Shown: positions 6,426 to 64,000 of the stretch, in pieces | How positions within the stretch are numbered: the stretch's first letter is position 1 | Layout: each line of letters opens with the position of its first letter | Origin: Curvularia clavata | Lineage: Eukaryota | Direction: 5' to 3' | Assembly (NCBI GenBank): GCA_023920165.1 | Contig: CP089275.1 | Span: 5,766,001-5,830,000, forward strand | DNA length: 64,000 nt | Program-made: the position numbers and the translations under genes | Notes under the pieces: model-generated | The model's input: only the letters and a program-made list of their open reading frames with translations | Databases searched by the model: none | What the model was told of the DNA's origin: nothing

Positions 6426-6553
6426 AGCTGCGGAACTTAACAATCGTGCGCTGGTAGTGAAGAGTATAGACAGAAAATAACCTGATCGTTCTTAATTACA
6501 GTCCGATAGATCTCTTCACTGCTTGCAGATTTAGAATCATCTCTACAACAATA

Positions 6554-6727: not shown

Positions 6728-6986
6728 TCTCGTATCTTGGTACGATCGCCCGTAGTTGGACACTTTAAGGTAGCCTAGCTACATAAACTATCTTTGTCAG
6801 AAGCCCCGAAGCGCTTAGAAGATGTGCTGCATTGTAGATCAGAGTGTACTAAGTCCTAATCTTTCGGATATCGGCCGCTTTGTGTGACATAGCCTGAGAT
6901 GTTTCCAAAACATGTCGTATCCTATATGCATGGGTATAGTTATATATGAACTTTGCCAGACAGAAATATGTATCTTATGTGCCTTT

Positions 6987-24913: not shown

Positions 24914-24915
24914 TA

Positions 24916-32297: not shown

Positions 32298-32428
32298 ATA
32301 TTGGATGCGTGTTTTCAACCTCTCACTGTTGATTGGTGATTAGAACATCGCACGATGGCAGAGAATCAACTCCTTTTCCATATTTGATAAATACAACAGT
32401 GTGGAAAAGGTGTAAATTTTGATCAAAG

Positions 32429-34869
32429 TCACTTCTCTGCATCAAAAATGACCTTTTGCACCTCCATCCTTTCAAACTTTGCATACCACTTAGGCGCTTC
32501 CGAAAGAGGTACCACTGTCTCCGTCAGAAAGTCTAACTTGTCTTGACACCTACCCAGGCAATCTAATGCATCCTGAAAAACAGACCTAACAGGACACCGC
32601 CCCATATAAAGTCGTATGTTCTTATCGTACCCTTCATCCCATCTGATTAGCAAACACACAGACTCCTAGATACATGTACTCAACCACTCACCCTGTGAAG
32701 CTGTAAAGGGGAATTCGGCGCTGTGCACCCCGATCGAACTGATAACGCCCCCTGGGCGTACCAAGTCATATGCCAGTTGCAAGGCGGATTTCTGTCCTAC
32801 GAGCTCCAAAACAACGTCTACACCCCTACCATTAGTGACGCAGCGAACATGCTCGAATAAATCTGCTTCATTGGTACTATAGTTCTTGGGCTCAGCGCCC
32901 AAGGAGGCGGCATTTTGCAGGCGGGAGGGCACGGCGTCGATTGCAATGAGGTGATTTGGGTGGAAGGTTCCTGCGGCAGCGATGGCGCAGAGTCCGACAG
33001 GCCCACAGCCTATGACTGCAACTATGCATTTTCGTATCTGAGGGGGTTTGAGCTGTGAGAAACCGTTGCGAACGGCGTAGAACTGGGAGAGCAGTTAATC
33101 AAGGTAGACGGGATTAAGCAAAAGTGGGATTTGATGCGGGTTCACTCACGCCTGTCTTGTAGGGAATGTCAGCTTTTGTTGAACTTCAAAAAAGAAATGG
33201 TGACTTTGGTACTTACGGGAAATATATCTGCCATCAAGATGTTGTTTCGTGGAGCAATACCTGGTGGGCTCTTGAAGGCAGTCGTATCAGCAGATGGTAC
33301 CCTCACTTTGGCACACTATCGTCAGCTTCCCCTCTCGAAGTTCCTAGTAAACTTAGAGATATCTTACCATACTGCGCCTGTACGCCTCCTAAATGTTTTG
33401 TCCCATAAACCATGCATGCTTCGCAGCGAGACGACAAACCATTCTCGCAATAGAAACAAGCCCCACTGCCATCGTTAGTAAAACCCTTTAGAGTTGCAAC
33501 AGAAGGAAAGAATACCTACCAACTGATAGTGAACGGAGATACCACTGTATCACCGACCTGGAACCCGTGAACCTTCTTACCAATCTTTACTACGGTCCCC
33601 GAGAACTCATGACCCATAATGAGATCACTACCGCCATCTTCAGTTCCACGATATAGATGCAAATCACTGCCAAAATCAGATCATCGAATGTCTTTCAAAC
33701 CGGATGATCTGCAGGCTTACCTTCCGCAAAGGCCAGAAAGCTGAACCTTCACAATCATATCGCAATCATCCACAATCATAGGCACGGACCTATACTCGAC
33801 CTCAATCTGCCTCACGCCCTTCAATACCACAGCGCGCATTGTCTCTGGAATCACATGCGCCTGGCCCGACAAGTCCACACCCACACTTGCACCATTCTCC
33901 ACTGTAGCAGCAGGCTTAATAGCACCCAACTTCTTGGCCGCCTCAAACGTGGCATTCACAGCGCGGCCAAACCCCTCCCTCACACCCAACTCTTCCAGAA
34001 GTCTCAACCCCTTCTCGGTAGACCCCCCCACTGTCGCAACCTGTTTAATAATATACTCTGGCGTTTGCCCAGTAACAGCAAGTTTGGCTGTACTCCGCAT
34101 CGAAGCAGCTGCAAACATCCGCGCAGAGTCCTCATCGAATCCCTTCGCGACCAAAGCCAGACTCACGCTCTGTAGTACCGCTGCAAAGAAGGCAGGTCCC
34201 GATGCAGTGACTACAGCTGCTGCTTCAATTTTCTCAGGGGGAACTTCGTGCACAGAACCGACATGTTGGAAGAGTTCACACGCCGTCTGTCGCGCGCTTG
34301 CGCTCCCCCCAGAAACAAGCGTCGCGCTTTCGCCTACCAACGCCGCAACATTCGGCAATGCGCGAACAATGTCGCATTGCGCTTCGCCTTCCTCGCCTCC
34401 CAGTGCGGTGCAAAGGTCGGATTCTGTGACGCCGCCGAGGACTGAAATGAGGGTTTTACCGCAAAGAGCAGCCCGAACGCCTGGTGTGCTTAGAATCTCG
34501 CGGTACTGTGAGGATTTGCAGCCCAGGACAATGGTGTTGGCGGCCTGGATTGTGCTTGCGGTTTCGAGGACATGAAGCTGAAGGTTCGTCGTGGGAGAGG
34601 CGCGCAGGATGGATGAGAGGCGGAGTTTGCTTTCAGCGGTGCGGGTCGTGATGTGGAGGGTATGCGTGTCAAGGAATTTGGCGTATAGAAGGCGTTGAAC
34701 GATCGGGGTGCAGATTTTACCTGTGGAAGATAAGGTTAAGTCGTGTCGTCTTGTATCGTAAATCCACAGGAAAAATATCTTGTTGTCTGTTGGCAAATTG
34801 TTCTTGAAGGAACTCACCGCATCCAATGAATGCCAAGCTCTGCTGTCCGATGGTATCTTGTTGCGCCAT
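32429..34869 (-). CDS. Fusion of pyrroline-5-carboxylate reductase-like domain and Zn-dependent (MDR) alcohol dehydrogenase (about 661 aa, 8 exons)
   Basis: The P5CR part has [33 protein letters not shown] and [12 protein letters not shown]. The ADH part has LCGSDLH, MGHEFSG, CGACFYC..SSRC, ADIFPTG and IGCGPVG. Exons are 34869-34818, 34720-33721, 33666-33520, 33465-33368, 33305-33217, 33155-33150, 33082-32692 and 32631-32429 (1986 nt). Confidence 0.85.
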
Positions 34870-35568: not shown

Positions 35569-36648
35569 TCAATATGCAGTCAGCAACCTCTTTTTTTGGA
35601 ATTCCAAAGCTGTCATGGTTTCTTTTGCATCTACTGGGTGATCTCCCTGGAACGGCTCCAAAGGCATTACATAGGCTTGACGCGCAGCCTTGCAAAAGTA
35701 CGCGATCGAGTAGCGCTCAGGGACGATGCCGTTACCCTCTGAATCAAGCTTTGTGTCTTTTGGACTCGTAACCCTGTGCAAGCCAGCTGGTAGGGCTTTG
35801 GCAGTCCAGTGTTCCATGGTCTCAGAAATATTGACGATGAGGTCCGTCTTGTCAACCTGCTCCACCTGTATGAATTCCTTTGGACGCTCGCGATCCTCAA
35901 ACTCGAGACCACCGACACAGTCTGTGAACAGGAGTGTGATGACGCCTAAATCATAATGAGGCCATATGCGTTCGACCTTTCTGTCCTCGAGAGCCTTGGC
36001 TGACATCGCTGGGTAGTGGTTGATACGGAACTCGCTCGCGTTAGGTAGGCACTGCTGACGAAAAGTTCCCTCGGGGACGCCCATGGCTTCTTCCAACGCT
36101 TGCATGATCTCGAGGCTCAGCTTCTCGCATATCTGGAAGAAGTCCTCGAGGTGCGCACGAAAGCCAGGCAGTGTGGCTTCGTCGGGCCATCTGCTTTCGA
36201 ACATGTTGTCTTCTGGCGCTCCAAAATCAAAGTGCTCGCGTGCATCTTTGAGATCTTCGGCTACTGAGTGGCCCATAAGTTTTCCGTATAGAGTTGATGT
36301 CTTTTCAGCACCGAGCGTGCTCCATCCACGCTGTGGGCGGGGTCCGGGAGGGTTCAATACTTTGCGCTTCTCCTCGAGCGGAAGGGCGAAGAACCTCTTA
36401 CCCTAGATAGCTTGTTAGTTTCCTATGATTTTCCAGTGTATTGTTTCTCTTGTTTTGTTTGAAGAATCGCGCGGGAAACTCACCCATTCAAAGGCTTCCT
36501 CGACTCTTTGTGAATCGATGCCGTGATTCCTGATCCTTGCGAAACCATTTTTACTTAGCTGCTCCAGCAGGCTCTTGGAATATTGTAACCGTTCCTCAGG
36601 TGTTCCAGTTTGGAATTTAGAGGCATCAAGAAGTATGGATGCGACCAT
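35569..36648 (-). CDS. IPNS-like 2OG-Fe(II) dioxygenase B (332 aa, 2 exons)
   Basis: Motifs GFARIRNHGI, PQRGWS, PHYDLGVITLLF, GLHRV and RYSIAYF. Intron at 36403-36483. Confidence 0.92.
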
Positions 36649-41374: not shown

Positions 41375-44300
41375 TTACTTCAATTTGTTCCTTCCGCTAC
41401 CGCCCAATATCATCTGCTCAATCACATCCCTCTCCCCACTCTTGGCCAGCATGTCACGAAACGCTGCATTGCTCTTCATAAGTCTGGCTGGTGTGTCGCA
41501 CTCGCCACGCCCGTCGTCCATGACAAGGACCTTGTCGAAGTCTGCAATGGTGCTGAGGCGATGAGCAATGACAATCAGTGTCGAGTCTTTGAACTCGTCA
41601 CGGATCGAGCGCTGGATTTTCTGATCCGTTGCCATATCGACGGCTGACGTGGCCTCATCGAGGACCATGATGCGAGGGCGCAACACCATAGCGCGTGCTA
41701 GGCACAGCAGTTGCCGCTGACCCTGTGAAAGATTGAGCCCACCGCGGGCAATTTGGGATTGCAGGTTGCGGAAGATGTTGACGTTGGAGCCTGGTACGTC
41801 TTCATCTTCGTCATCGTCTAGGTCTGAATCGATGAGGTGGACACGACGAAGCGCATCCTTCAGTTCGCCGTCGCTGTGTTTGTCAAATGGGTCGAGGTTG
41901 GAGCGCAACGTGCCCGAAAAGAGAACAGGGTCCTGCGGGATGATGGCGAGTCTGCTGCGGAGATCTGAGAGGCGGATCTTAGAGATGTCCACGCCATCCA
42001 CCATGATGCTGCCCTTCTCTGCCTCGAGAACGCGGAAGATAGCAAGTGAGAGAGACGACTTGCCACTTCCAGTACGGCCTACGACGCCCACACGTTGGCG
42101 CGCTGCGATCGAAAAGGAGAGGCCCTTCAGAACCAAAGGTAGTTCGGGCGCATACTTGGCGTTCAGGTTCCTAACCTCCAATCGTCCTTCCCTCGGCCAA
42201 TCATGTTCGACCGGGTTGCCAGAAGGGTCTTCCGTCTTCATCTCTGTGTACTCGACTACTCGCTCGGCAGAGTTCATGTCAAGCTCAAAGCTGGTGTAGC
42301 GGCTGATGGTCTCGATGGCAATGTATGAGTAATCGAGCACAAAGCCCAGCGTGAAGCCTGCAAGGGAGGCGCTGATGCCGTCAATACTGATGACGACGGC
42401 AGCAACGACAAAGGTGAAGATGCTACCAGACAAACCCTGTCGGAAAGACATCCAACGGGAAGCAAGAAGCAGATGCCAAGTTGTACGGCCGTAGTCATCG
42501 ATGCGATCAAACATGCGGTCCATGTACTCGTCCACCTTGCCAAAGCTACGCACCGTAGCCAGACCTGCCAGAGAAGAGCCCAAAAGTTCGAAAATCGGTG
42601 ACTTTGCATTGCTCTCTAACCGCTTGATATCTCGCACACCCTCGAGATATACATTGGCGTAATATAGACTGACCACGGCAAATATGGCTATGGGAGCTAT
42701 CATCATCAGCGAGACAAATAATGCTGATCCAATAATGGTGATGATGATCAAGAACCCATGGAAGGCCCAGTTGAAATCTCCAGCAAGACGCGAGTCCACC
42801 AGTGCAAAGTCACTGACGAACCGGTTCATGATGCGGCCGGTAGGAACAGTGTCCAGCCAGCGTAGCGGCGCTCGAAGGACTGTGTGCGTGATGGTTTCGA
42901 ACAGTTTGCGGGAGGCCCGAATCGATGCTCGCAGAACCATTAGGGACTTGACAGCGATAAGAAGTGCTGCCAACGCAGAAAGAACGATGTATACAGCGAG
43001 GTAGTATTTGATTCCGCGATGATCGGCGTCCGGTGACGACTGCGCCTTGGCAAGGTCCTTTTGCGTCCAGTGCTTGACCCAGTACGACCGGCCCAGCATC
43101 GATAGGGCAGAAACGACATAAATGCTAATCACCAGAGTCCAGTACTTGGTACCGCCCGAAGAGCCCATATAGACCTTGAACACGTTTAGCCTAACTCGAC
43201 CCTTCTCTCTGAATTCATCTTGCACAAATTTCATGGGTGCATCGGCTTTTTTGGTATCGTCCAATTCGACGTCGTTCAAAGCAGCTTTTGCATTGTCTGA
43301 CGCAGCAGTCTGAGATGAAACATGCCCCAAAGACTTGAGTGTGGGTGTGTGACGGGTAGCTCTCCTCACTCCTCCCTCACCCAGCTCTACGATGTAATTT
43401 GCCAAGGACGAGACCAGGCCGACGTGATGTGTGACGAGGATGCGCGTTCGCCCTTGCATGAGGTCTCCATGGAGAGCATGATTCAGAATGTGCTGTCCAA
43501 CATGGGCGTCTACGGCACTGAAGATGTCATCGAGCACGAGAATGCCGGCGCGAGAGTACAATGCGCGGGCCAGTGTCACTCTCCAGCGCTGGCCACCGCT
43601 GAGATTGATACCACTTGCGCCAATCTCTGTGTCTTCACCATCCGGTAGCATATCCAAGTCCTTGGTCAGCGCACATGCGTCGAGCACTTTGCGATAGCGC
43701 GACCTGACGTAAGGCAGTCCGAAGAGAACATTGTCCTTGAGCGATGCATTCTCAATCCAGGGGATCTGGGCGACAAAACCCATCAGAGACGGGACAATCC
43801 AGTCATGCTGTGAGATGGCGATGGGGGCATGATGATGACTAGAGGGTGGTCGGGGTGCGCTAACGCTGCCTGAAATGATATCGGCTTCACCGAGTATGGC
43901 TGCCAGCAGAAGACTCTTGCCCGAACCCGTTTTGCCATGAACAACACTGAATTCGTTATTTGGAAAGCGCAAATTGATGTCTCTCAACCGAAAGGAACCC
44001 TCAGCCTCGTTCTGCGAAGGCCACGAGATGGTAGCATGTTCGAAGGCCACACAGTCTCCGGATTGGGGTGGCTTGCGTTCATTGGGTTGTTTGAGATGCT
44101 GCTCGATTCTAGAAAGACTTACTTTTGCGTCTAGCAGCTCGGTAATAGTGGTGGGGACAACGCTGAGGGTCCATTCAAGGCTGGAAAAGACGGAGAGAGC
44201 CGTGAATGCAATGGCGGGAGTAACGGAGCCGTTGATCCAGGCGTAGGCACCCAAGGCTGCGGCTCCAAGAAGAATCGGCATGGACAGCCACGTAAATGTC

Positions 44301-46021
44301 ATAAAGGTGGCCCACTTGAACAAGCGCCATTGAGCCTTCAGTTCCTTGTTACGCGTGGTCATGATAATCTTCTGCCACTGCGGCTCAATGGCGGACAGCT
44401 TGATCTGACGGATGCCGTGCAAGGCCTCGGTGACGACGTGGGCCTTTTCGTCCCGGATCATCATGACGGCCTCAGCGGCATTGGAGTATCCTCGAGTGGC
44501 CACCTGATTGAGAGGCTGGAAGACGAGGGGCACGGCGAAACCCACTAGGGTACTCACCCACCCGATCAAGTTGACAAGGAAAACGGAAGCGATGATGATC
44601 TTGAGAAGACTGGCGGGGATGAGCACATTGTAACCGGCAAAATCGGAGACACGCTGCACATCCACACCCAGCAGGTTGACCGCGCCCTGGGCGTCTTCGT
44701 CAGAATCCTCCTTGGGCGACGAGTCGTCGTCGTCTCCGTCGTCTCCGTTGGCGGCATGGGTATGGGCATTGGCACTCGCACGCTCATCCTTGGTCATCAA
44801 TGCCTCCATCTCGTAGCCGTCGTCTTCACCAATACCCGAGTCGCCGTCGCTGCTTTTGCGCGAAGACTTGGTCGAGGCCGACGAGGCGGAATTGGAAGCA
44901 GCCGTCTTGACATCTTTGAGGCGCATGGATTTGTCGTAGATGAGGGCCGAGAGCTGAGAGCGAATCGGGGTAGCGAGCAGAGCAAAGTTGACCCATTCCA
45001 GCCACGACTCGGTGAACAGATGGGCAATTTTGAAGACGACCAGGCCGCCCGCCCACAGCCATAGCTGGCGCACGTCGGGCTCGTCTGTAGCCTTGCGTTC
45101 GAGCAGTGTGAGGAGCTTGAACAGGGCGGCCTGGGGCCCGACCAGCAGCACGCTCTCGAGGGCAGCGAGGCTCCACTGGACGGTGATGGCGTGGCGATGG
45201 TCGGCGATGACGCTGCGCCAGAGGGGGCGGGCCGAGGGCTGGAAGCATGGGGGAAACCGGTGGCGCAAATGGCGGGTCAGGTACTGGCGGGTGAGGGCGG
45301 GCAGGTCATGAACCTCGAGCAGCTGGTTAGGGTTGTTGCGCACGCGGTCCAGCAGCGGCCGCGTCCACGCGAACGAGTGCTTGGACAGGGCTGACACAGC
45401 GTGCTGGGCGTCGACGCGGGCGGCGTCGAGCGTGGCGCGTGGCAGCGACAGGGCCGCCGTGGCCGCCAGCGCGGCCCCGCCCGCGGCTACTCCCGTCACC
45501 ATGAGCAGCAGGTGCGGGCTGGCCGCCGCCTTGGCCCGCAGCGCCAAGACTCCGCCCGCTAGGCAGAGGGCGCCGCTCGACGCTGCCAAGCGGCAGCCGG
45601 TGCGGAAACGACGATGGCCGCTCTTCTCACCCACCAGCCGCGCCGCCTGTAGCGCCGCCAGGGCCCAGCCCGCCACCAGCACGACGGCGCCCATGCTGAA
45701 GGCGAGCCTCAGCACCACGACCGACGCCAGCAGCCCCGTCGCTGTGCCCACGGCGGCCAGGTACGTGTATGCGCGGCCCTCTTTCACCGTCGCCTCGTCG
45801 TCGTCGCTGTCCATCTCGCCCTCCAACTCGGCGTCGTCCACCTCTCCCGACCACGGCCCCCGTGCATCATCGTCCTCTTCGTCCCCTGCGAGCGAAGCAT
45901 ACCTTGCCTGCTCCGCATTCTTTGTCTTCTTCTTCTTCCGGTCCCGCAATGTGAACCAGGTCGACGCAGCTGCTACCGCGACACTGACCCACGTCACCGC
46001 TGTCGTCGTGCTATCTGCCAT
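41375..46021 (-). CDS. ABC transporter, ABCC/MRP type (1548 aa, apparently intronless)
   Basis: NBD1 GKTGSGKS / LSGGQ / ILVLDD and NBD2 GRTGSGKS / LSQGQ / VLDEATS, with two TM regions. Divergent from the NRPS. Confidence 0.95.
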   Translation of the reverse strand: MADSTTTAVTWVSVAVAAASTWFTLRDRKKKKTKNAEQARYASLAGDEEDDDARGPWSGEVDDAELEGEMDSDDDEATVKEGRAYTYLAAVGTATGLLASVVVLRLAFSMGAVVLVAGWALAALQAARLVGEKSGHRRFRTGCRLAASSGALCLAGGVLALRAKAAASPHLLLMVTGVAAGGAALAATAALSLPRATLDAARVDAQHAVSALSKHSFAWTRPLLDRVRNNPNQLLEVHDLPALTRQYLTRHLRHRFPPCFQPSARPLWRSVIADHRHAITVQWSLAALESVLLVGPQAALFKLLTLLERKATDEPDVRQLWLWAGGLVVFKIAHLFTESWLEWVNFALLATPIRSQLSALIYDKSMRLKDVKTAASNSASSASTKSSRKSSDGDSGIGEDDGYEMEALMTKDERASANAHTHAANGDDGDDDDSSPKEDSDEDAQGAVNLLGVDVQRVSDFAGYNVLIPASLLKIIIASVFLVNLIGWVSTLVGFAVPLVFQPLNQVATRGYSNAAEAVMMIRDEKAHVVTEALHGIRQIKLSAIEPQWQKIIMTTRNKELKAQWRLFKWATFMTFTWLSMPILLGAAALGAYAWINGSVTPAIAFTALSVFSSLEWTLSVVPTTITELLDAKVSLSRIEQHLKQPNERKPPQSGDCVAFEHATISWPSQNEAEGSFRLRDINLRFPNNEFSVVHGKTGSGKSLLLAAILGEADIISGSVSAPRPPSSHHHAPIAISQHDWIVPSLMGFVAQIPWIENASLKDNVLFGLPYVRSRYRKVLDACALTKDLDMLPDGEDTEIGASGINLSGGQRWRVTLARALYSRAGILVLDDIFSAVDAHVGQHILNHALHGDLMQGRTRILVTHHVGLVSSLANYIVELGEGGVRRATRHTPTLKSLGHVSSQTAASDNAKAALNDVELDDTKKADAPMKFVQDEFREKGRVRLNVFKVYMGSSGGTKYWTLVISIYVVSALSMLGRSYWVKHWTQKDLAKAQSSPDADHRGIKYYLAVYIVLSALAALLIAVKSLMVLRASIRASRKLFETITHTVLRAPLRWLDTVPTGRIMNRFVSDFALVDSRLAGDFNWAFHGFLIIITIIGSALFVSLMMIAPIAIFAVVSLYYANVYLEGVRDIKRLESNAKSPIFELLGSSLAGLATVRSFGKVDEYMDRMFDRIDDYGRTTWHLLLASRWMSFRQGLSGSIFTFVVAAVVISIDGISASLAGFTLGFVLDYSYIAIETISRYTSFELDMNSAERVVEYTEMKTEDPSGNPVEHDWPREGRLEVRNLNAKYAPELPLVLKGLSFSIAARQRVGVVGRTGSGKSSLSLAIFRVLEAEKGSIMVDGVDISKIRLSDLRSRLAIIPQDPVLFSGTLRSNLDPFDKHSDGELKDALRRVHLIDSDLDDDEDEDVPGSNVNIFRNLQSQIARGGLNLSQGQRQLLCLARAMVLRPRIMVLDEATSAVDMATDQKIQRSIRDEFKDSTLIVIAHRLSTIADFDKVLVMDDGRGECDTPARLMKSNAAFRDMLAKSGERDVIEQMILGGSGRNKLK

Positions 46022-46917
46022 GGTGATTGACCACGAGATAGAGATGAAGAGGGAGAGAGCGTGTGTGCGTGTGTGCGTGTGTTGATGTTGGCGTACGGGC
46101 TAATACCGTGCTGCCATAAGCAGCTCTACTGCCCCTTCACGCAATCTGCTGGCCCGCACGTCCAGATAAACAGCCAGCAAGCCGTGCTATGCTGGATTGG
46201 GCAAAGAAAGCGAAAATAACGGCTCCGTTCGCTATTTCATGTCATCATCAATAGTCGGTCGGATCCAGGGTTGGAGCGAGACAGACAAGCGCCGCTCACC
46301 TGGATACTCACCTGTTTCTTAGCTGTTTCCACGTCACTATGTTTGATGTACCAAAAAGCAGACGGGTATGAGGAGCCAAAGGGGTTGCACCTTCCCTTCA
46401 GTGCGAATAATTACGCGAGAGCGAGCATGCTAGTCCTAGCTAGTGACCTGTCATCAACGCTGCTGACAGCCCATGGACTTGATGACTGAATCTTCAGTTT
46501 GGGCAACGCATCCTCTATCAATGCCTCGCCACGTGATCAGGGCAGCTCCTTCCTGCACCAGACCCAGATACCCATGGCGTGGCCCTGTGCACAATTCATA
46601 CCCTTCTTTTGGCTGACCAGTTATCCATTGTAAACGTGCCTCTATCGGTTCCAGCATGCTCTGCATAACCCCCCCTTAGCCTGCTCCTATTCAACGCTTG
46701 CTTGCATCCATCCCAACACCTCGTTGGAATTCATATGACTTTTTGATGCATCCTCCATTGTTGAAGATTTGAGTATCGAAACCGGGCCATGTCCAGCAAA
46801 ACCAACCTTTCTTGAATCTTTACCCAAAACGAGACGAAGAAACGAAACGTTATTTGCCCTCTCTGAAATACCACTAACCTAGACAGACGGTAGACTCACC
46901 ACCTTGCATAGACGACC

Positions 46918-47927
46918 ATGTCGACTCCTCCTAACACGAACGATGCCCCCGGGCAGTTGACCACCGCCGACATCGAGCAGATCAAGGCATGGAACAGCAA
47001 CCGTGAAACAGAAACCTTGCATCTCTGTCTTCACGACGTCTTGCACCAGCAAGCCGTCAGGACCCCCTCTCGCCCTGCCTTATGTTCATGGGACGGCGAC
47101 ATGGACTATGCACACCTTGACCAGCTCAGCACTCGCCTAGCTCACTGGCTCGTGTCCGACCGAGGCCTCAAGGTCGAGGACATCGTGGCATTTACCTTTG
47201 AGAAATCTTCAGTAGCCGTCGTCACCATGATTGCTGTCATGAAGGCGGGAGGTGTCGTTATGCCCCTGGACCCCCGTATGCCTCAGGGTGCTTGGCACGA
47301 AAGAATCCATCAGTTCGACGCTAAGACGGCAGTGACTTCGTCCACCTTCGCCAGTCGCTTCCCCAGCAGCATCTCAGGAAGATGCTTTATCATTGACGCC
47401 GACTTCCTCGAGACTCTCCCCGACCTGACCCATCAGCCGTGCTCCGACGTCCGCCCACACAACGGAGCGCTCCTAGCCTTCACCTCGGGCAGCACGGGTA
47501 AACCAAAGGGTATTCTCCAAGAGCACTATGCCTTGAGCACTAGCTGTCGTGATCATGGCGCCGCCATGAGAATCACCTCTGAGTCCCGGACCTATCAGTT
47601 CTCCAGCTATGCCTTTGACACCGCCGTTGGCGACATGTTTTGCACCTTTTTAGTTGGCGGCTGTGTGTGCCTTCCATCCGATACGGATCGAGTCAACAAC
47701 CTCGCTGCATCTATCACCCAGTTGGGAGCCAACCTGGCATGCCTGACCCCTAGCGCCGCCGATTCGCTAAGTCCAGAGGAGGTACCGACACTCAAGGTAC
47801 TCTGCCTCGGAGGCGAAACATTGACGGAGCGCCTTGTCAAAAAATGGGCTTCTGTTGTCCAGCTCATCAACATTTACGGAGTGACCGAATGCGTAAGTAG
47901 CCCTAATCCCCCTCCCCAACGCACACA

Positions 47928-47977
<50 letters not shown>

Positions 47978-50900
47978 CACACAAGATGTATAAGACCAGG
48001 CGATAACCCAGAATAGATCATCTGGTGCGTGGCCACTGAACCCATTCGCCCTGGAGATAAGCCGAGCAACATCGGCCGGGCCGCGTGTGGTACCACCTGG
48101 ATCGTGGATCAAGCAGATCACACTAAGCTGGTTCCCATCGGAGAGGTTGGCGAACTTCTTATTCAAGGGCCAAATATGGCCAGGCACTACGTTCAGAACC
48201 CACAGGCCACAGAAAAAGCTTTTGTATATCTGCCGCCATTCCTCAGCAGCGCCGATACTGATTCATTGTGTCGCTTCTATCGCACAGGTGATCTCGCAAA
48301 GTATGCAAGCGATGGGAGCATTGAGTACCTTGGTCGACGAGACACGCAGGTCAAGTTTGCAGGCCAAAGAATTGATCTATCCTACATCGAGTACCACATG
48401 GAGAAATGTGTTCCCAGCCATGTCGAGGTTTGTGTCGTAGTCGCTGCTCACCAGCGCGTCTTGGCTGGGTTTCTGGCCGATAATCGTTCAGCTTCCGAAT
48501 ACAACCCTTCAGACATCAAGGCTCAACTATCGCATCAACTTCCGTCTTATATGGTTCCGGGTATCATCATCCCTCTCAGCCGGATGCCAACTACCGCTAC
48601 TGGCAAACTGGATCGCCAAAGGCTAAGTAAGATGGCCTCTGAGTCCATGACTAACATGCCACTAGCACTTGCTACACGACAATGCTCCGAAGCTGAAGAA
48701 TCATTGCGCAATCTCTGGGCTTCAGCACTGGATGTGTCACCAACAGTGCTCCATCCTCAATCCATCTTCCTTCAATATGGTGACTCCGTCTCCGCCATAA
48801 AGCTGTCCAGTCTCGCTCGTAAATCAGGCATTGCTCTTGACATGGCAACTATCTTTATGCATCCAACCCTTTCTGATATGGCTCTTCACCTCGAATCAGC
48901 CGCAACCAACATGCTCGAAGTTACTGCTTTCAGCCTTATCGAGCCTGAAACGCTGAACATGGCCGTGCGTGAAGCCGCTTTGCAGTGTGGTCTTGGTGTG
49001 GAAGATATTGAAGATTTATATCCATGTACCCCGCTGCAAGAAGGCTTGATGGCTTTGTCGATGAAGCAAAAGGGAGAATACATTTCCCGATACATTCTAC
49101 CCCTCAACCCTTCTGTTGATTTGTCGACGCTCAAGAGCGCCTGGAAAACGGTTATAGATTACAACCCCATCCTTCGCACCAGATTAGTGCAGTTCAACAA
49201 CCAGACCCTACAAGCAGTCATCGCCTCTCAATTCGACTGGACTATCGAAAAAGATCTTGAGGCCTACCTGAAAACAGACTTTGCGATACGTTCAGGATAT
49301 GGAGAGGCTTTGATCAGCTCTGCTCTGGTACAGAATGCAGGAGACTGTGTTTTAGTACTCACCATGCATCACTCCATCTATGATGGATGGTCTATCTATC
49401 GAATTCAAGAACAGATTGAAAAAGCCTATCGGGGTCAATTACAGCAGCCTTCGATACATTTCCGCTCGTTCATCAGCAGTCTTCTCTCCAGTAACCAGGA
49501 GTCTTCGGCATCATACTGGCGAGGGCAGCTTCAAGACGCTCCAGACATCGCATTTCCTCCTATATCGTCCTCCAATCGAACCCCATCTGCCAACAGTGTC
49601 CAAGCTCACAACTTCGTATTGCCGGTAGTGCCCACGTCAGAAATCACAACTTCTACATTTGTTCGTGCAGCATGGGCAATCCTGATATCGCAGCACTGCC
49701 TTTCAGATGATGTCGTCATTGGCACTACACTATCCGGCCGATCTATGCCGCTTGCTGGAATCAACGAACTTGTGGGTCCTACCATTACGACTTTACCGGT
49801 TCGAATAAGGTTGTTGGGCTCGCAAATGGTAGAGAGCTTTTTGCGCCAGCTGCAAGATCAGGCGACGGACATGATTCCTCATGAGCACTTTGGCCTCCGC
49901 AACATTCGCAAACTGGGTCCTGATATAGAAGCTGCCAGCAACTTCCAGAGTCTGCTCATTCTTCAACCTCCGGTCAGTCTTGTGGAAGGCGATGTGTTTG
50001 AACAGAGAGACATAGAGATGATAGAGCAGACTGGAACGTTTGTTCTGACTCTGCAAGTACGTCTCGAGGGCCAACAAGTTGAACTTGTTGGAAACTTTGA
50101 CGAGACCATGTTAGATGGTCGTTATGTCTCCTGGCTACTGCACCAAATGGAACACATCATGAAGCAGCTTTATGAGAACCCATTTACGCTCCTGCAAGAC
50201 ATCAAGGCCTTTTGTCCTAATGATGAGACACAGATTGCCCAATGGCTGCCAGACATGGACTTTGTGGACCGCTGTGTTCAAGACGTTTTTGCAGACCGAG
50301 TACAGGAGACGCCAGATTCATGCGCAATATTTGCCTGGGATGGCGAGGTGACGTACAAAGAACTGGACGATATGTCAAACCGGCTCGCCTGGCATATTTA
50401 TGGACTAGGTATCCGACCTGGAGATCGTGTTCCTCTCCTTTTTGAGAAGTCGCTTTGGACACAGATTGCCCTATTTGGAGTCATCAAAGCCGGTGCAACG
50501 TTTGTCTTGATCGATCCAGACCACCCATCTATCCGAATTCAGGGAATATTTGATGACGTGGAAGCCAAACTCACGCTCAGCTCTGTTCAGTATGAGAGTG
50601 CGTCTCATGGTTTTGGGGTCTCTGTTCTTGTAGTCGATAAGTCATTGATAGAGCAATTGCCCAGCATGGAAGGCAAATTGCCCGTGGAAATATCGCCAAG
50701 ACAAGAGCTTTACATCCACTTTTCCTCGGGCACGACTGGGAAACCCAAGGGCTCTATTATCGAGCACTGCTCGTATTCATCTTCGGCAGCTGCCACATGC
50801 AAGGCCACGGAATTTTACCCCGGCCCAGAGAGCGCAAATAGGGTACTTCACTTTGCATCTCACTCATATGATATGTGCATTGAAGAGATTCTTGCGACTC

Positions 50901-53900
50901 TTATGCATGGTGGCGTTCTCTGCATTCCTTCCGATTTCGAGAGGAACAACGACGTCATCGGCTCCATCAACAAGTACAACTGCACGAGGGCGAACTTTAC
51001 CCCATCATTCGGGCGACTCATTGCGCCCTCTGACGTACCAGGCCTCCGTGTTGTGACCATCGGTGGTGAAGCCATAGCAGAGCAAGACATAGCCCACTGG
51101 AACGGAGTCAAACTATGTAAGTCCGAAAATGACTACTTTCCATGCCTTTTGCGATACACTAATCTATCATCAGTTAATGCGTACGGACCATCTGAGGCAG
51201 CCGTAACGTCTTGCGTCAAGGAATGGCCTACGATTAACAGTACCACCGACTTCAGGAGCATAGGTCATCCCATCGAGTCAGGACACTTCTTCCTTGTTGA
51301 GCCTGGTAACCATCACCAGCGAACTCCTTTGGGTGGCTTGGGCGAGATCGTCATCGATTCTCCCACAGTTGCGAGGCAGTACCTCAAGGAGGCTGAGAAG
51401 TCAAAGAAAGCCTTTGTCGATAGACCGGCGTGGCTATCCGGTGAGGGCACTCCAGCAGGTCGCAAGCTTTACAAGACGGGTGATATTGGACGCTACTCCG
51501 CCGACGGAGAGATCATATTCCTTGGACGTAGGGACACCCAGGTCAAGCTTCGCGGTCAGAGATTAGAGCTGTCCGAGGTCGAATACCATGTTTCCTCGCA
51601 ACTGGCAAGCGTTGATGAGGTGGTTGCGGACGTGATTACTATTGCGTCGCTACCGAATCCTGTTCTTGCTGCATTCATCCGTCTTGGTTCCAAGCAGTGT
51701 CAGGGCGACATGATCGATGAATTTGCCGCGTCTGGGCAAAGCTGGGTGGCACTCCAAGATCGAATTACGAACCATCTTGGAAAAGTGGTCCCAGGCTACA
51801 TGATTCCGACCGTCTTCTTCCCAATGCGGCGCATTCCACTGACAAACTCCCATAAGGTCGACCGCAAAGTGCTACGCGAAGCCTGTGTCAATCTCACTAC
51901 CGAACAGCTCGCATCTTTCTCGTCGACTCTAGAGAACAAGAGGGCTCCGACAACTCGACTAGAGTTGGCCATGAGCACAATATGGTCTGATATCTTGGGA
52001 ATAAACAAAGATTTGATTGGAGCAGAAGATAATTTTTTCCAGCTAGGAGGTGACTCTATAGATGCGATGAAATTGGTCGCCATTTGTCGTTCCCAGGGAC
52101 TGTCGTTGACAATGGCTACATCTTTTCAGCATCCGTGTCTTGCTGACATGTGTCTCGCGCTGACGGAGACGATTCAAGATTCTAGCAAGGATCTGGATGA
52201 AGTTGAACCATTTTCTCTCCTCTCAGAACACGAAACGGAAGCTTTACGGAAGGAAGCGGGTTTTCAGTGTTGTTTGAGCTTGGATCTCATTGAAGATATT
52301 TACCCAACGACACCACTCCAAGAGGGATTACTTGCTATCTCGGCCAAGCGACCGGGGATGGAGATGGCGCAGATGAGCTTTCCACTTGATGCTCAAGTCG
52401 ACGTTGAACGCCTGAAGATGGCTTGGGAGTCTGTCGTGCATCAAACTCCAATTCTTCGAACGAGAATGATTGCCACGAAGTCTGGGACTTTCCAGGTAGT
52501 TACTAACGAGCAGATTGAATGGATTTCAGCCAATAATCTACAAAAATACGTCAAACATGATCGGGAGATGCCTATGCTTAATGGGGACAAGCTATGTCGA
52601 CTAGCTATGATTACAGAAGCGGGCTCTGAAAAAGCACACATTTGCATCACGATGCATCACGCTCTATACGATGGCTGGTCATGGGCTCGATTGATTGAGT
52701 CCGTTGAAAAGGTCTATGCGGGCGTAACCATCACACCTTCGGTTCCATTCAACCATTTTGTCAGATTCCTCATGACGCTGAATCTGAATTCCAAGCGTGC
52801 AGCTAAGGAACACTGGTCAAGTGTCTTGGCCGGCACCAGTGCAGACATATTCCCCAAGCTGCCTGATGCCTTCTACTCCCCGCAATCAGATAGTTGCATC
52901 AAAAAGATGGTGTTGGGAAAGAATCTCTCACATGTCACCTTAGCTAACGTCATTCGTGCAGCTTGGGCCTTGCTCATCTCGCGTTATACCGAGAACTCGG
53001 ATGTCGTTTTTGGCTCTGTCGTCACCGGTCGCGACGCTCCAGTTGAGGGTATTGATGGTCTCGTAGGCCCTACTTTCACGACCATCCCTGTGCGCGTCCA
53101 GGTGGACGCAAACTTGACCATCGGAGCCTACCTTCAGCAGGTTCAAGCCCAAAGTGGTTCTACAGATTCTTTTGAACACATTGGTCTCCAGAGAATCAGA
53201 AACATCAACTCCGATACCAAGATCGCATGCAGCTTCCAGAATGTGTTGGTTGTGCAGCCAGAGGAGGAAGATGTTTCCCAGCAGGGAATTCTCAACGAAC
53301 GACAAGATCTAGATGAGATGGGTACTTTCAACAATTACGGACTCATGCTGGAATGCACACCAAGTCGTGATGGCATCCATATCAATGCCAGTTTTGACAG
53401 TAACATGGTCACAGAGTTCCAGATGAGTCGTATCTTAGATCAGCTAGCACATGTCCTCCGACAGCTTTTGAGCCGCGAAGAGAAGCAGCTTCGAGATGTG
53501 GACATGCTCTGCCCTGAAGACTACGAACTGATACGCCAGTGGAACCAAAAAACTCCCGAGATTCCCGAACAGTGCATGCACACTGCGATAAAGGTTCGAG
53601 CTGAACAACAGCCAAAGGCCGAAGCCGTGTGCGCGTGGGATGGCAGCTTCTCTTATGAAGAAGTAATGGCACTGTCTTCACGCCTTGCGACACATCTCCA
53701 CGAATTAGGAGCCCGACCAAACACAGTAATACCTATCGCGTTTGAAAAATCAAAATGGACCATCATCTCCATGATTGCCGTCTCAATGAGTGGTGCAGCA
53801 TTTGTTCTCCTAGACACTGCTCACTATGATCAGGAACGGCTCATCAGTCTATCAAGGGATGTTGATGCAGAAATAATCGTTGCCAGTCCCACTTATGCGC

Positions 53901-56900
53901 CTTACTACGACGAAAACTGGAAAAAGGTTGTTACCTTGTCGTCAGAATTTGTCCAGATGCTGCCTGCAGATTCGGGCCTCCCCGACCATCTCTATCATCA
54001 CGACAACTATTTCTGTGTCATGTTTACCTCCGGTAGCACGGGAAAACCAAAGGCAATCATTCACAGCCACGCTGGGTTATACGCCAGTTACGAAGCGTTT
54101 GGCTCGGCCCTTGTCCTGAACTCAGAAACCCGCGTTTTCCAGTTTGCTTCGAACTCCTTCGATCCTGCCATTATCGACCCCTTTTCTACATTAATGCATG
54201 GTGGATGCGTATGCATACCTTCAGAGAAAGAGCGTATCGATGACTTTTATGGCGCTTTCCATAGGCTGCAAGCAAATTGGGTGCATCTGACTCCATCTTT
54301 GGGACGCAGTTTGAATCCTGATAAGCTCCCCGGACTGAAAAATATTCTTCTAGGAGGTGAGCCGCTTATGCAGACGGAGCTGAACGTCTGGTCTGAGAAG
54401 GCTCATTTGATGTCTGCATACGGGCCGGCCGAATCCTCGTTATGCATCTCCGGTACACTCAAAAAAGGGGTGCGCTCGCCACCCAACTTGGGCTGGCCTG
54501 TTGCGTGTAGGGCCTGGGTCGTTGAAGTCTCAGACTATACAAAGCTAGCGCCTGTCGGAATGATTGGTCACCTCATTATAGAAGGACCAGTGAACGCCCT
54601 TTGCTACATGAACGATGCCGAGAAAACTGCTGCTGGTTTTATATCACCTCAACACGTCTGGATGCCCGAAGTCGCATCCCCAGTCAATCAACGAATGTTC
54701 CGAACGGGTGATCTAGTCAGATATACTCCGAATGGCACTGTCGAGTTTGTGGAAAGACGAGACACACAGATCAAACTTCGAGGTCAGCGCATCGAGCTCA
54801 GCGAAGTGGAGTTCCATCTCAAAGAAGCATTGAAGCAAAGCGGCTATGACGTAGAGAGCATTGTTGCCAAGATAACACCTTCCGAGTCCAGCTCACTTCT
54901 AGCCGCCTTCATTGAGAGTCATGAACTGTCAACCGGCTGTCAAGAGAAGAATGATGATATCATCGGCCAACTTCTGGAGTCAGTGACTGTACACATGAAA
55001 TCAAAGCTGGTAGCTTACAAGATCCCAACCGTGCTGATACCGGTGGCAACTATACCTCGCACCCCGTCTCAGAAGATTGACCGTAAAGAGTTGCTAAGAA
55101 TAGCTTCCAAGTTATCAGAAAAGGAAATCGCCTCACGCACTTGCTCGAGCCGCGTTGGACGAGCCCCGATCACCGAAGCGGAAAAGCACATTTGTTCGCT
55201 CTTTGCGCGTGTCCTGGAGCTTCGTGAAGAACAAGTCTTTGCAGATGACATGTTCTCACGACTGGGCGGCGATTCCATCCAAGGCATGCGATTAGTAGCT
55301 TTGGCAAGAGAAGAAGGAGTCGTTATAACTGTATCTCAATTATTTTCCTCATCCAGTGTAACGGAGCTGGCGAGTCAGCTTCCTTCTCCTGCGGCCACCT
55401 TCGTCGAGCACCAGCAACCTGCTTCACGTCAGTCCGCATTGTTCCATCTTGCAGCGGACCAGTGCAATGTCAGCACAAATTGCATCGAAGATGTATACCC
55501 GTGCACACCACTTCAAGAAGGACTCATGTCGCTATCTCTTGAGAAAGACAATGCCTACGTCGCTCATAATGTCTTCCAACTGCCACCTGACGTGGAGGTT
55601 GAACGATTGAAACAGGCTTGGGCTGAAGTGTCGGCCAGGAATCCCATTTTGCGCATGCGAATGATTTCCCTGCAAGGCAGATCGCTCCTAGTCGTCGTGC
55701 AGGAAGAGTTCTCCTGGCGGACTGGAAATTCTCTTAAAGACGGTATAGATGAAGAGAAACGGCTTACAATGGGGCTCGGCTCACCCCTCAATCACTTCTG
55801 CCTGGTTGGCTCTGACGAGGGAAATTTCCTACTTTGGACCTCCCATCACTCCACATACGATGGCTGGTCAATGAAACTCTTAATTGATCAAGTTGGAGCT
55901 GCCTATCACGGCCGCACACTCCCTATGAGTACGGCTTTCAGAAACTTTGCCTTGGATCTCGAATCACGTCATTTAGATTCCAGTGCTTTCTGGGCCCGTA
56001 TGACGAACGTCAGCCCTATCCAGACATTCCCCGAGAAGCCTTTACCAGGCGTTCGCCCAAAGGCCAATCTGACAGCAAGCCGGCAGTTCAATCTAAACAG
56101 GAGAACAGGCTCACCGATAACGACTTCGGTCATTTTGCGCGCAGCATGGGCACTCACTCTACGCCAACATGTAAGTTTATCTTGAAACTCACATCTCATT
56201 TGATTAAAATCTTTCTGACATGCTAACCCACACCTTCAGTGCGACGCGGGTGCTGTCTCCTTTGGTACAGTCTCCTTTGGGCGGAACAGCGATTTCCCTG
56301 GCATTGAAGGGATCGTCGGGCCCACATTCTGCACATACCCTGTCATCACACAGGTAGAACCAAACCTCTCCGTTCTCTCCTTCCTTGAGGCGCAACAGGC
56401 AGCATGGTTAGAGGCTCTTCCACATGAACACTTTGGTCTCCAGAATATCGCAAAATTGAACAATTTCTGTAAAGAGGCTTGCGATTTCCAAAACCTCCTA
56501 CTCATACAGCCAAAGCAACTGCGGGAGGCAGAGTCCACGGACGTCATGGGTACCTGGTTGCAATCGACAGAATATTCGGAATTTTTCTCCTATCCGCTCA
56601 CCATCGAATGTTCACTGAGCGAGACCGGTTGCGATGTCCTTGCTGGTTGGGATGAAGATCTCATCGAGAAGAATGTCGTGGAGAATATGCTGTCACAATT
56701 CGATAGTATGGTCCAACAGCTGTTGACCGAAGAACCCACACAAACTATTGGGCAGCTCGACATGCTCGGTGCCAGTGGCCTTGAGCAAATTAGGAGCTGG
56801 AACAAGTTGTGTATTGAGTTACAAGCGCCTTACACCGAGGAGAACGACATGCCTGTGCACATACGCATAGCAAAACGAGCGCAGGAAAATCCACATGCCG

Positions 56901-59900
56901 AGGCGGTGTGTGCAAGAGACGCCAGTCTTACTTATGCAGAAGTGCAAAGATATTCAGATGCATTGGCTGCGTATCTTGTTCTTCAAGGAGTTGGCCCAGA
57001 GGTCCTTGTCCCCTTTTGCTTCGAAAAGTCGGCATGGACTGTTGTCACCATGCTGGCTATCTCGAAAGCTGGAGGAGCGTTTGTCCCGCTAGAAGGATCA
57101 TACCCAGTGAGTTGGCTCACTAATGTAATCGAACAGATAAGCGCACATATAGTGGTCACATCACCGGAAATGGCACATGTGTGCTCTCAGTTGCCCGCCA
57201 AAACAGTGGAAGTATCACGCAAGTTCCTTGATGCTTTACCAGAAAGCACTGTACAGCAAAATGTCAAATTGGCGGATGCGGCATACGTGATATTTACTTC
57301 TGGTAGTACGGGAACACCCAAGGGTGTAATCATGGAGCATGGCGCCTTTAGCCGTGGCGTCACTGACCATGGCTACATCCTAAGATTGGGGGCAGCATCG
57401 CGTGCCTTGAACTTTGCTTCGGATGTCTTCGACGCAAGGTGAGGCTACTCCAACTTTATGAATTGTCTTTGAATCTAACGCAAAACAGTATCACTGAAAC
57501 CATTACAACCTTAGTGCATGGAGGCTGCGTGTGCGTACCATCAGCAGCAGAACGAACTGGTGACCTCGTATCTGCCATGACGCGAATGAAGGTCAACTGG
57601 GCATTCTTCACAACCTCGTTCCTTTACACATTAAGTTCAGAAAACTTACCACATCTGGAAACCATAGTGGTTGGTGGCGAGCCTATAAGTGCCGAGATAT
57701 TCCAGGCATGGGCTGACAAGGTATGTCTCATTGAGGGGTACGGTCCAGCAGAGTGCTGCATCTATTCCACAGCTGCGGTGAATGTAAAACCTTCTGATAG
57801 TCCCACGAATATCGGACGAGCAACGTCTGGACATTGCTGGATTGTTGATGCACAGGATCACAACCAGCTGGCTAGTATAGGTAGCGTCGGAGAGCTCCTG
57901 ATCGAGGCTCCCACTCTCGCCCGCGGATACCTCAACGATCCCACCAAGACTGCGGCTGTTTTCGTTGAGGACTTGGCATGGGCAGCTGCTACAGGGACCG
58001 TACCTCGGCGCATGTATAAGACAGGCGACCTTGCTAAGTACAACCATGACGGAACCATAGAGTTTGTTGGTCGGAAAGACACACAGGTGAAGCTGCGTGG
58101 TCAACGCGTTGAACTAACACTCATTGAGCATCATGTCCGCAAGGTTTTACCGGACTTAGTGCATGTTGCCGTTGAGGTTATCACAACGGCTAGTGATAAG
58201 GTACGTTCTCTGATACATGTTACAGTGCATCTCGCTGATTGTGTGCCCCGATTTCTAGATACAACTGCTCGCTGCTTTTTTGGAATTCAAGGATTCTACC
58301 ACCGATATGCATCTATCTGGAGAGCTTCGATCTACGTTGATCGAGGCACAACGCAACTTGAGCAAGCAGATTCCACGACATATGATTCCTTCTCTCTTCC
58401 TACCCCTTGCGGCAATGCCTCTATCTGCCTCGGGAAAGATCAATCGCCGAGAACTTCGGAACAAAGGTGCAAATCTCTCCAAACAGCAGATTGCCTTGTT
58501 TTCCTTAACTGCTAATGACAAGCGGCCCCCTTCGACAAAGAACGAGTCCACCTTACAACTCTTTTGGGCAGATCTTCTGCGCATACCAATAGATTCAATT
58601 GGTATCGATGATGGTTTCTACCAACTAGGTGGAGACTCCATTCTTGCCATGCGCTTGGCTACACTGGCCAGAGAACAAGGTCTCGATTTGAATGTGCAGA
58701 CGATTCTCAAAAGCTCCTCATTAAGCGAGATGGCCTCTCTTGCACATGCAATCCACGAACACGAGGAATATAGCATCAAGCCCTTCGCGCTTGTAGATGG
58801 GTGTGAAAAACTGCAAGAGCAACTGGAAACACTACACAACATCGATGGCACCCTAATCGAAGACGCATACGCATGCACCCCACTTCAAGAAGGCCTTGTG
58901 GCACTATCGGCCAGATATTCTGGTACCTATGTCGCTCAATTCGTGTTCAAGCTTCATCCTTTCATCGATCTGGCTCGGTTCAAACAGTGCTGGGAATCAT
59001 TGGTCTGTCGGCACGCCATTCTTCGAACAGTTATTGCGAATGTAGATGGTACATCGCTGCAGCTGGTTCAAAAACCGTTCTCAATTAGCTGGCTAGCTCA
59101 CTTCAGTCTCAGTGAATATCTGGATGAAGACCGAGCTTCTCCAATGGACACGATGCAACATCTTGCCAGGTACGGCATCGTGAGTGACCGAGATGGTCAA
59201 ATCTTCTTCGTATGGACAGCGCATCATGCTATATACGACGGATGGACTGTCGATTTACTTTTCTCTGAGTTGAAACAGATGTACAATGGGACGCTCATAA
59301 CTTCTCTGCCTCCTGTACAACCGTTTGCCAAAGTTGCAAAATACGTCAGTAGCCTTGACGCGGACAACAGTGCTCAATACTGGAGAGATCAGCTCACGGA
59401 TAAAGACCATGCTGTATTCCCAGATACTTCGTTATCGAAAGAAGATCCCATTGCTAACGCGACCTATACACACACGATTACGATGTCACGAACACACAAT
59501 TCGACAGTTGCAATGTCGACTCTGATAAGATCAGCCTGCGCTGTTGTACTTTCTAGCTATGCGAACTCCAAGGATATAGTATTTGGGGAAATTTTATCTG
59601 GTAGGGATATTCCCGTTTCTGGAGTGGCTAGCATCGCAGGACCGCTCATCACAACGGTTCCCGTTTCCGTCTCCTTGGACTTTGAACAACGCACCTCCAG
59701 GTTCCTTAAGCAAATGCAGGTACAAGCAGCAGACATGATCCCTCACCAGTATTTTGGGCTGCAGAAGATTCGCCAGCTCGGCCCAGAGTGTAGCAGCGCT
59801 AGCAACTTCACAACGTTGCTCGTCATTCAGCCCGCCAACGAGTCTGCTGATGTCGTCGAGATGTGGGAGCAGGAAGAAGCGGCGACAGCCACCTCGGGGT

Positions 59901-63695: not shown

Positions 63696-64000
63696 TTGTG
63701 CGACGGTGAGCTAACGCAGCATGCTCCTGAAGGATGTATCTAGAGACTATGGACAGAGTGCAAACTGGAGAGAGTGGGTGCAAAAATATGTCGACGATCC
63801 CAAAATAGAGGTAAAAAAAAGGCCAAGTAAATTAAGCGATATGTCTGTAATCGTATATAGGTTTCCAATTGGCCAGAATTCACAGCATCCTCATGCACAA
63901 CTCATGATATACCAAGGATGCTCTCTGCGAGTCCATGTCGTGGGCCTGGGTGTAGCACTAGCATCGTCAGGACGATCTAGAACACGGTCAAGAGCCGCAT

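Follow-up and report, generated by a model that had tools for sequence, protein, structure and literature searches.

Is a protein that carries a pyrroline-5-carboxylate reductase (P5CR)-like domain and a zinc-dependent alcohol dehydrogenase (ADH) domain in one chain a genuine gene product, and what could such an enzyme make? The question is raised by a gene of Curvularia clavata located at positions 32429..34869 of a stretch of 64,000 nucleotides (GenBank assembly GCA_023920165.1, contig CP089275.1, forward-strand positions 5,766,001 to 5,830,000), hereafter called the window. A preliminary description, made by a model from the sequence alone, had proposed a single-chain fusion at exactly these coordinates; the fusion was borne out, the gene being transcribed across the domain junction and conserved. 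Several bioactive peptides, among them griselimycins, echinocandins, destruxins and nostopeptolides, have methylprolines as key residues. By analogy with known pathways, we give a probability of about 0.55 to the reading that the bifunctional enzyme and a UcsF-like dioxygenase encoded beside it make an alkylproline, most likely (2S,3S)-3-methylproline from L-isoleucine rather than 4-methylproline from leucine. A single-chain ADH-P5CR enzyme that is conserved and expressed would offer a compact template from nature for turning hydroxy amino acids into cyclic imino acids in a redox-neutral way, and the fusion would be a specific genome-mining bait for alkylproline-containing fungal peptides.

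Gene model and transcripts across the domain junction

The gene was read on the minus strand, with an ATG at 34869 and a TGA ending at 32429. Computed splicing and translation joined eight exons into an open reading frame of 1986 nt (661 amino acids) that is free of internal stops. Each of the seven introns is of the GT..AG type, and their lengths are 54-97 nt. The spliced model and the domains that it encodes are as follows:

34869-34818, 34720-33721, 33666-33520 and 33465-33368, minus strand: exons 1-4
33305-33217, 33155-33150, 33082-32692 and 32631-32429, minus strand: exons 5-8
33927..34869, minus strand: P5CR-like domain (Rossmann part and P5CR_dimer), residues ~1-282, split by intron 1 (34721-34817)
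33840..33926, minus strand: linker of 29 residues in exon 2, between the end of the P5CR_dimer match and the ADH start
32432..33839, minus strand: Zn-dependent medium-chain ADH domain (ADH_N and ADH_zinc_N), exons 2-8
33150..33155, minus strand: micro-exon of 6 nt (ACAGGC) encoding the Thr-Gly of the conserved DIFPTG motif

Exon 2 (34720-33721) is exactly 1000 nt long and contains P5CR-like domain sequence, the linker and the first ~40 residues of the ADH domain, which opens with a conserved Met-x-Ala-Val-Val. The junction peptide quoted in the preliminary description lies inside this exon, which is free of stops, as had been claimed.

Parts of the stretch are contained in 12 public RNA runs, four of which, from two studies, were compared. 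Their contigs are spliced and at least 99% like the window, so their source is processed RNA of close relatives or other isolates. Spliced contigs bridge the domain junction in all four runs, and a single contig of 1251 nt spans 32786 to 34334, crossing four introns. Contig joints matched introns 2-6 in every run, intron 7 in two runs and intron 1 in one (it was retained in one contig of another run); all seven introns were seen as joints at least once. Stretches that lack contig cover in some runs (e.g. 33119-33209, intronic) were given no weight. The micro-exon appears as six extra letters, GCCTGT on the plus strand, between 33082 and 33217 in contigs of all four runs; it could be placed at one unique site with AG/GT flanks, and its Thr-Gly is also present in three orthologues of the protein (P0002-P0004).

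The public NCBI model (P0001), named "alcohol dehydrogenase [Curvularia clavata]", has 603 amino acids and is identical to our model over exon 2. It is wrong in three places: it lacks part of exon 4, with two of the four structural-zinc cysteines, the micro-exon and most of exon 8, and the RNA contigs back the model of 661 amino acids. The corrected model is needed by anyone expressing the fusion enzyme.

Domains, residues and conservation of the fused protein

All four families predicted in the preliminary description were found using Pfam. P5CR_dimer was detected in exon 2 (1.1e-21, 77.5 bits for a cut-off of 25), F420_oxidored in the joined model P0001 (1.4e-5, 26.1 bits for a cut-off of 21.6; 29-37 bits in P0002-P0004), and ADH_N (6.6e-10) and ADH_zinc_N (3.8e-18) on single exons. 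As F420_oxidored and P5CR_dimer both score above their Pfam cut-offs, the N-terminal half was considered as a putative member of the P5CR family. Among solved proteins it comes closest to a plant P5CR, in a weak match (7e-15, 58.5 bits, for the window exon 2), and the structure of P0002 reaches a template modelling (TM) score of 0.73 against P5CR clusters (Atlas model with a predicted TM score, pTM, of 0.55 and a predicted local distance difference test score, pLDDT, of 0.79).

Two motifs serve the binding of substrate and cofactor in P5CR, a Pro-Asn after the third strand and a Gly-Gly-Thr/Ser-Thr loop. The departure of these motifs from the canonical form, already pointed out in the preliminary description, is real when judged against the solved plant P5CR, which has RVMPNTAATVGE and VTSPGGTTIAG at the places where the window protein deviates. 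The P5CR half retains Pro-Asn and Gly-Gly-Ser-Thr with changed flanks (Leu for Met, Val-Ala for Thr-Pro/Ala, Val for Pro). The Gly-Gly-Ser-Thr core is present in all four fused proteins (the window protein and P0002-P0004), the residue preceding Gly-Gly being Val, Ala or Thr instead of Pro, and in one orthologue (P0004) Ser replaces the Asn of Pro-Asn.

In the ADH domain, the catalytic zinc ligands are the Cys of GLCGSDLH, the His-Glu of GHEF and the Asp of ADIFPTG, and the four structural-zinc cysteines and a GCGPVG (GxGxxG) motif are present as well. The ligands had been reported from the window sequence; their columns are invariant across 24 ADH relatives, and likewise in 9 relatives. With these domains, zinc ligands and GxGxxG, the C-terminal half was classified as a predicted Zn-dependent medium-chain dehydrogenase/reductase. 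Among solved chains, the orthologue P0002 is most similar to 4cpd (2e-57, 198 bits; a TADH-type ADH) and 5yln. When the second Rossmann strand ends in Asp, NAD is generally favoured over NADP; since the ADH domain has this Asp, as does 4cpd, it is suggested to be of the NAD type.

A search for longer proteins related to the gene found 2. With the Lasiodiplodia orthologue as query, 13 proteins were retrieved, 4 with all four Pfam domains and 9 with ADH but without P5CR. The four full-length fused proteins come from Curvularia, Lasiodiplodia (L. theobromae), Diplodia (D. corticola) and Botryosphaeria (B. dothidea), the last three being Botryosphaeriaceae, and the fusion is thus retained in two orders of Dothideomycetes; in an alignment of the four, the linker differs in length and sequence. 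Among the best 150 representatives from 1.84 billion proteins, 149 match the ADH half only and one is a junction-spanning fragment (P0014). The P5CR half alone, used as query, retrieved 27 proteins, 8 at 57-88% identity and the rest at 29-37%. Seven close relatives of this half were inspected (6 of those 8, and P0014); all extend past the linker to the beginning of the ADH and stop at a conserved intron, and the nearest P5CR-half relatives inspected thus all belong to fused genes.

Three contigs syntenic with window positions 27713-37413, at 75-80% nucleotide identity, were obtained by scanning metagenomes. They encode an orthologue that covers residues 1-661. Against the orthologue of contig L001, the ratio of nonsynonymous to synonymous substitution rates (dN/dS) is 0.175 in the P5CR part, 0.159 over the linker and ADH start, and 0.04-0.11 in the later ADH exons. 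With values of 0.04-0.18, both halves are maintained and under purifying selection.

These data also bear on the idea that no functional fused chain exists. The gene might give rise to two proteins, for example an ADH from an internal Met, as considered in the preliminary description, or the junction might be an artefact of assembly or annotation. An in-frame Met does open the ADH domain, the contigs are compatible with an additional internal transcription start, and intron 1 is retained in one of them. Such an explanation is nevertheless extremely improbable, given a junction that lies inside one exon, is bridged by RNA contigs in four of four runs from both studies, recurs in independent assemblies as well as in metagenome contigs, and sits in a part of exon 2 with a dN/dS as low as that given above.

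Origin of the fusion and comparison with known alkylproline systems

The preliminary description had called the protein NosF-NosE-like, after the separate enzymes of cyanobacterial methylproline synthesis. To obtain a reference, 301 cyanobacterial genomes were sampled. More than one P5CR_dimer match was present in 4 of them; three were examined, and in the fourth the matches are adjacent fragments. A second full-length P5CR copy was found in only 1 of the 301 genomes (L095). There, contig 1 carries between 36500 and 56400 an NRPS (nonribosomal peptide synthetase) gene with a terminal reductase, a WelO5-like oxygenase, a Zn-ADH, an acetyltransferase-like (hexapeptide transferase) gene, a P5CR and an ABC transporter, a gene content that suggests a methylproline cassette of the nos/ncp (nostocyclopeptide/nostopeptolide) type. 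The fungal domains match this cassette at 30% identity and 79 bits (ADH) and at 25% and 35 bits (P5CR), both scores being below those obtained against solved enzymes (198 bits for the P0002 ADH half with 4cpd, 58.5 bits for window exon 2 with the plant P5CR).

A quick maximum-likelihood tree of the ADH domain was built on 68 rows, comprising the window domain, the 3 fused orthologues, 6 named fungal proteins, 20 representatives, 37 bacterial sequences (L004-L040) and the cassette ADH, while L041-L083 and the remaining representatives were left out. The four fused domains form one clade with a support of 100 in the SH-like approximate likelihood ratio test (SH-aLRT), and this clade is nested inside stand-alone fungal ADHs (support 95 and 97), whereas the cassette ADH falls outside all other rows on a very long branch (3.6-4.1). 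A single fused clade inside the fungal ADHs fits one fusion event from fungal parts. The nearest relatives of the ADH half are fungal stand-alone Zn-ADHs (some named "Rv1895-like" or "GroES-like protein") with 46-53% identity to P0002; they and 4cpd share the same zinc ligands and the same Asp ending the second Rossmann strand, and none carries a P5CR domain.

Orthology with NosE/NosF was rejected in view of the low identity to the L095 cassette and the tree position, and the earlier name holds as an analogy only: as judged from these comparisons, the fusion resembles NosE/NosF, or GriF/ProC and MypF/ProC, in logic and not in descent from NosE/NosF. NosE (Zn dehydrogenase) and NosF (P5C reductase) belong to the same superfamilies, act in the same proposed order in cyanobacterial 4-methylproline formation and lie near an NRPS and an ABC transporter. 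They differ from the window protein in being separate genes with leucine as substrate and, in L095, a WelO5-like oxygenase, where the window has one chain and a UcsF-like oxygenase. The Nos route is cited in PMC4946873. The bacterial routes to 4-methyl- and 4-ethylproline described in PMC10817943 use an oxygenase, a Zn-dehydrogenase and a P5CR, namely GriE/GriF/ProC and MypE/MypF/ProC, MypF forming NADH. In these griselimycin (GriE/GriF/GriH-ProC) and mycoplanecin (MypE/MypF/ProC) systems of Actinobacteria, a 2-oxoglutarate (2OG)-dependent hydroxylase, an NAD+-dependent Zn dehydrogenase, spontaneous cyclisation and a P5C reductase give a 4-alkylproline for an NRPS (PMC10817943 and PMC8233208). 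The likeness to the fusion is one of described pathway, the Gri and Myp proteins being separate and the reductase often a housekeeping ProC.

Fungal counterparts are UcsF/UcsG (UCS1025A) and DetxE with SX-P5CR1 (destruxins, isaridins), which belong to assembly-line clusters and give 3-methylproline from L-isoleucine; UcsG is the putative reductase of the UCS1025A pathway. According to PMC8233208, UcsF and DetxE (42% identical to UcsF) convert L-isoleucine into 5-hydroxyisoleucine and then into 4-methyl-pyrroline-5-carboxylate, from which a P5CR gives 3-methylproline. A P5CR-type reductase completes the pathway, as proposed for the window; but in the systems described there the oxygenase alone makes the imine, no ADH takes part and the reductase is stand-alone, whereas the window adds a fused ADH. 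In another cluster type, a P5CR paralogue was recruited for pipecolate, a cyclic imino acid destined for an NRPS: these are kk1I of the KK-1 cluster, from the same species, and APF3 of apicidin F (PMC10512319). The 311-residue kk1I is stand-alone and in a different cluster, and the window P5CR is fused to ADH. In the characterised routes covered by the literature consulted, the imine reductase is a protein distinct from the dehydrogenase, where a dehydrogenase occurs at all, and a description of an ADH-P5CR fusion was not found in the open-access literature searched.

Neighbouring genes and a putative alkylproline route

The preliminary description had considered a dioxygenase as a partner of the enzyme, and a dioxygenase gene was indeed found 700 bp upstream on the same strand:

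35569..36648, minus strand: UcsF-like Fe(II)/2OG dioxygenase, two exons (Pfam DIOX_N and 2OG-FeII_Oxy)

It matches PDB entry 9ktp, "dioxygenase ucsF", with an E-value of 1.2e-77 and 264 bits over UcsF residues 56-333 of 333, and 139 of 275 aligned positions are identical (~50%, counted manually on the alignment midline). With this similarity, which runs through to the UcsF C-terminus, and both Pfam domains, the gene was assigned to a predicted UcsF/DetxE type. Its pairing with the fusion gene is kept in L001.

A UcsF-like oxygenase points to L-isoleucine and 3-methylproline rather than to 5-hydroxyleucine and 4-methylproline. The order of alcohol, aldehyde, cyclic imine and reduction that had been suggested earlier is still the best fit to the context, whereas the 5-hydroxyleucine then named as substrate is disfavoured on this analogy. 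In the route that we propose, the dioxygenase would hydroxylate the terminal side-chain carbon of L-isoleucine or a similar amino acid; the C-terminal Zn-ADH domain, with NAD+, would oxidise the primary alcohol to the semialdehyde; this would cyclise spontaneously with the alpha-amino group into a methyl-pyrroline-5-carboxylate; and the N-terminal P5CR-like domain would reduce the imine with NAD(P)H to the alkylproline, which would probably be loaded by a nearby NRPS. The fusion would hold the labile semialdehyde and imine close to the reductase. The ADH domain may be required where the dioxygenase stops at the alcohol, or it may rescue alcohol that has been released. If the P5CR domain accepts NADH, the last three steps would be redox-neutral, and the cofactor could possibly be recycled between the domains, as the preliminary description had supposed. 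A further and doubtful extension is that of a self-sufficient "hydrogen-borrowing" cyclase, in which a catalytic amount of nicotinamide would be shuttled between the domains to convert a delta-hydroxy amino acid to an alkylproline at no net redox cost, some relatives perhaps acting on chain-extended amino acids to give ethylproline- or methylpipecolate-type residues of an unknown Dothideomycete peptide.

An ABC transporter and an NRPS lie nearby, within 12 kb, and the following features of the window and of L001 were considered:

38440-39756, minus strand: DDE-type transposase remnant in three broken frames, between the dioxygenase and the ABC transporter
41375..46099 (open frame bounds), minus strand: ABC transporter (Pfam ABC_membrane and ABC_tran, two stretches each)
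46912..64000, plus strand: multimodular NRPS running off the window end, with adenylation-thiolation-condensation (A-T-C) repeated at least 5 times (Pfam AMP-binding, PP-binding and Condensation)
L001 2249-4366, minus strand: LeuC+LeuD (LEU1-type) isopropylmalate isomerase, directly upstream of the UcsF-like gene; absent from the window
L001 1486-2085, plus strand: short open frame that matches no family, likewise directly upstream of the UcsF-like gene; absent from the window

From its position, the ABC transporter is a possible member of the cluster, and from its proximity the NRPS may use the imino acid. No Pfam methyltransferase or epimerase match was found in the NRPS frames within the window. 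In the fourth A domain of the NRPS no A4 motif was found, and only two of the A domains showed the A5 pattern.

Two local features of these genes were noted in passing. The (G + C) fraction rises to 0.63 at 44001-46000, against ~0.45-0.50 elsewhere, where the ABC transporter frame encodes its N-terminal part and has many Ala/Asp/Ser runs; and a His-Thr repeat (a CA-type dinucleotide repeat) at ~47950-48010 on the plus strand, at the end of the first NRPS frame, is probably intronic.

Several observations weigh against the proposed route. UcsF and DetxE do both oxidations in vitro (PMC8233208), so the need for an ADH is not self-evident and the domain may be redundant. A profile scan of bacterial and archaeal genomes with the alignment of ADH relatives, from which the best 80 of 572 relatives were kept (at most 43% identity), found a P5CR-like gene within 8 kb of the nearest bacterial relatives at 0 of these 80 loci, and neither fungal domain is specifically related to the cyanobacterial nos/ncp-like cassette. 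The transposase remnants part the gene pair from the ABC transporter and the NRPS, so the NRPS link may be recent or coincidental. Residues of the A4 motif from four NRPS A domains show no proline-like pattern, fungal codes being poorly predictive. In L001 the UcsF-like gene is adjoined by the isopropylmalate isomerase, with no ABC transporter or NRPS there, and the downstream neighbour in both the window and the relative is a housekeeping-looking C2H2 zinc-finger gene. As the upstream genes of the relative differ from those of the window, the dioxygenase-fusion gene pair was considered as the conserved unit.

The first two of these observations would also suit a fusion whose domains do not act in sequence: the ADH might reduce its substrate instead, or might handle some alcohol or aldehyde unrelated to the pathway (e.g. 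in detoxification or diversion of the semialdehyde), and the fusion would merely co-express two redox enzymes. UcsF-type enzymes form the imine unaided (PMC8233208), stand-alone members of this ADH clade are widespread in fungi and ~50% identical with no known role, and the bacterial ADH loci showed no P5CR linkage. This reading is quite unlikely, however, since the fused ADHs form one clade, as a single fusion event would produce, the fusion is kept in two Dothideomycetes orders with both halves constrained, and all seven inspected relatives of the P5CR half come from fused genes.

The same two-step chemistry might act on another substrate, either L-leucine via 5-hydroxyleucine, to give 4-methylproline, or a chain-extended amino acid, to give ethylproline or a six-membered methylpipecolate. 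NosE/NosF, GriF and MypF act on alcohols derived from leucine or homoisoleucine (PMC4946873 and PMC10817943), and mycoplanecin synthesis extends amino acids with genes like those of the leucine pathway (PMC10817943). The isomerase adjoining the UcsF-like gene in L001 could accordingly be a hint of such chain extension, or it could be the housekeeping LEU1; and the changed P5CR motif, with Val/Ala/Thr for Pro before Gly-Gly, would permit a different ring substituent. We consider another substrate unlikely, as the oxygenase is ~50% identical to UcsF and even DetxE, 42% identical to UcsF, takes L-isoleucine, while the L001 isomerase passes the leuC equivalog cut-off, may be housekeeping and has no counterpart in the window.

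An enzyme of primary metabolism (proline, ornithine or lysine) with no link to secondary metabolism is highly unlikely. The housekeeping look of the downstream neighbour, and of the upstream neighbour in the relative, would suit it, but the distribution is very narrow, with 4 full-length proteins found and 149 of the 150 best representatives matching the ADH half only, the P5CR motifs are divergent and the gene is paired with a UcsF-like oxygenase of secondary-metabolism type.

Beyond the gene pair, two candidates were set aside. A second 2OG oxygenase with several introns (~28395-29610, plus strand) was not counted in the system: it is closest to fungal thymine dioxygenase (5c3o, 2e-27), resembles UcsF only weakly (2.8e-12) and lies past the zinc-finger gene, which is probably housekeeping, although it is syntenic in L002. 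It probably serves pyrimidine salvage. Identity of the locus with the KK-1 cluster was ruled out, since the kk1B synthetase described in PMC10512319 comprises 10 modules, carries five N-methyltransferase domains and is accompanied by the separate P5CR kk1I, features that were not seen in the window.

Elsewhere in the window, further remains of mobile elements were observed, namely a DDE_1 transposase frame of 588 amino acids (24883-26649, plus strand) and a reverse-transcriptase fragment (18992-19489, minus strand). A divergent pair is formed by a UbiD-family decarboxylase (4821-6491, minus strand) and a flavoprotein of the prenyl-FMN synthase type (6888-7736, plus strand), which is the usual fungal phenolic-acid decarboxylase pair.

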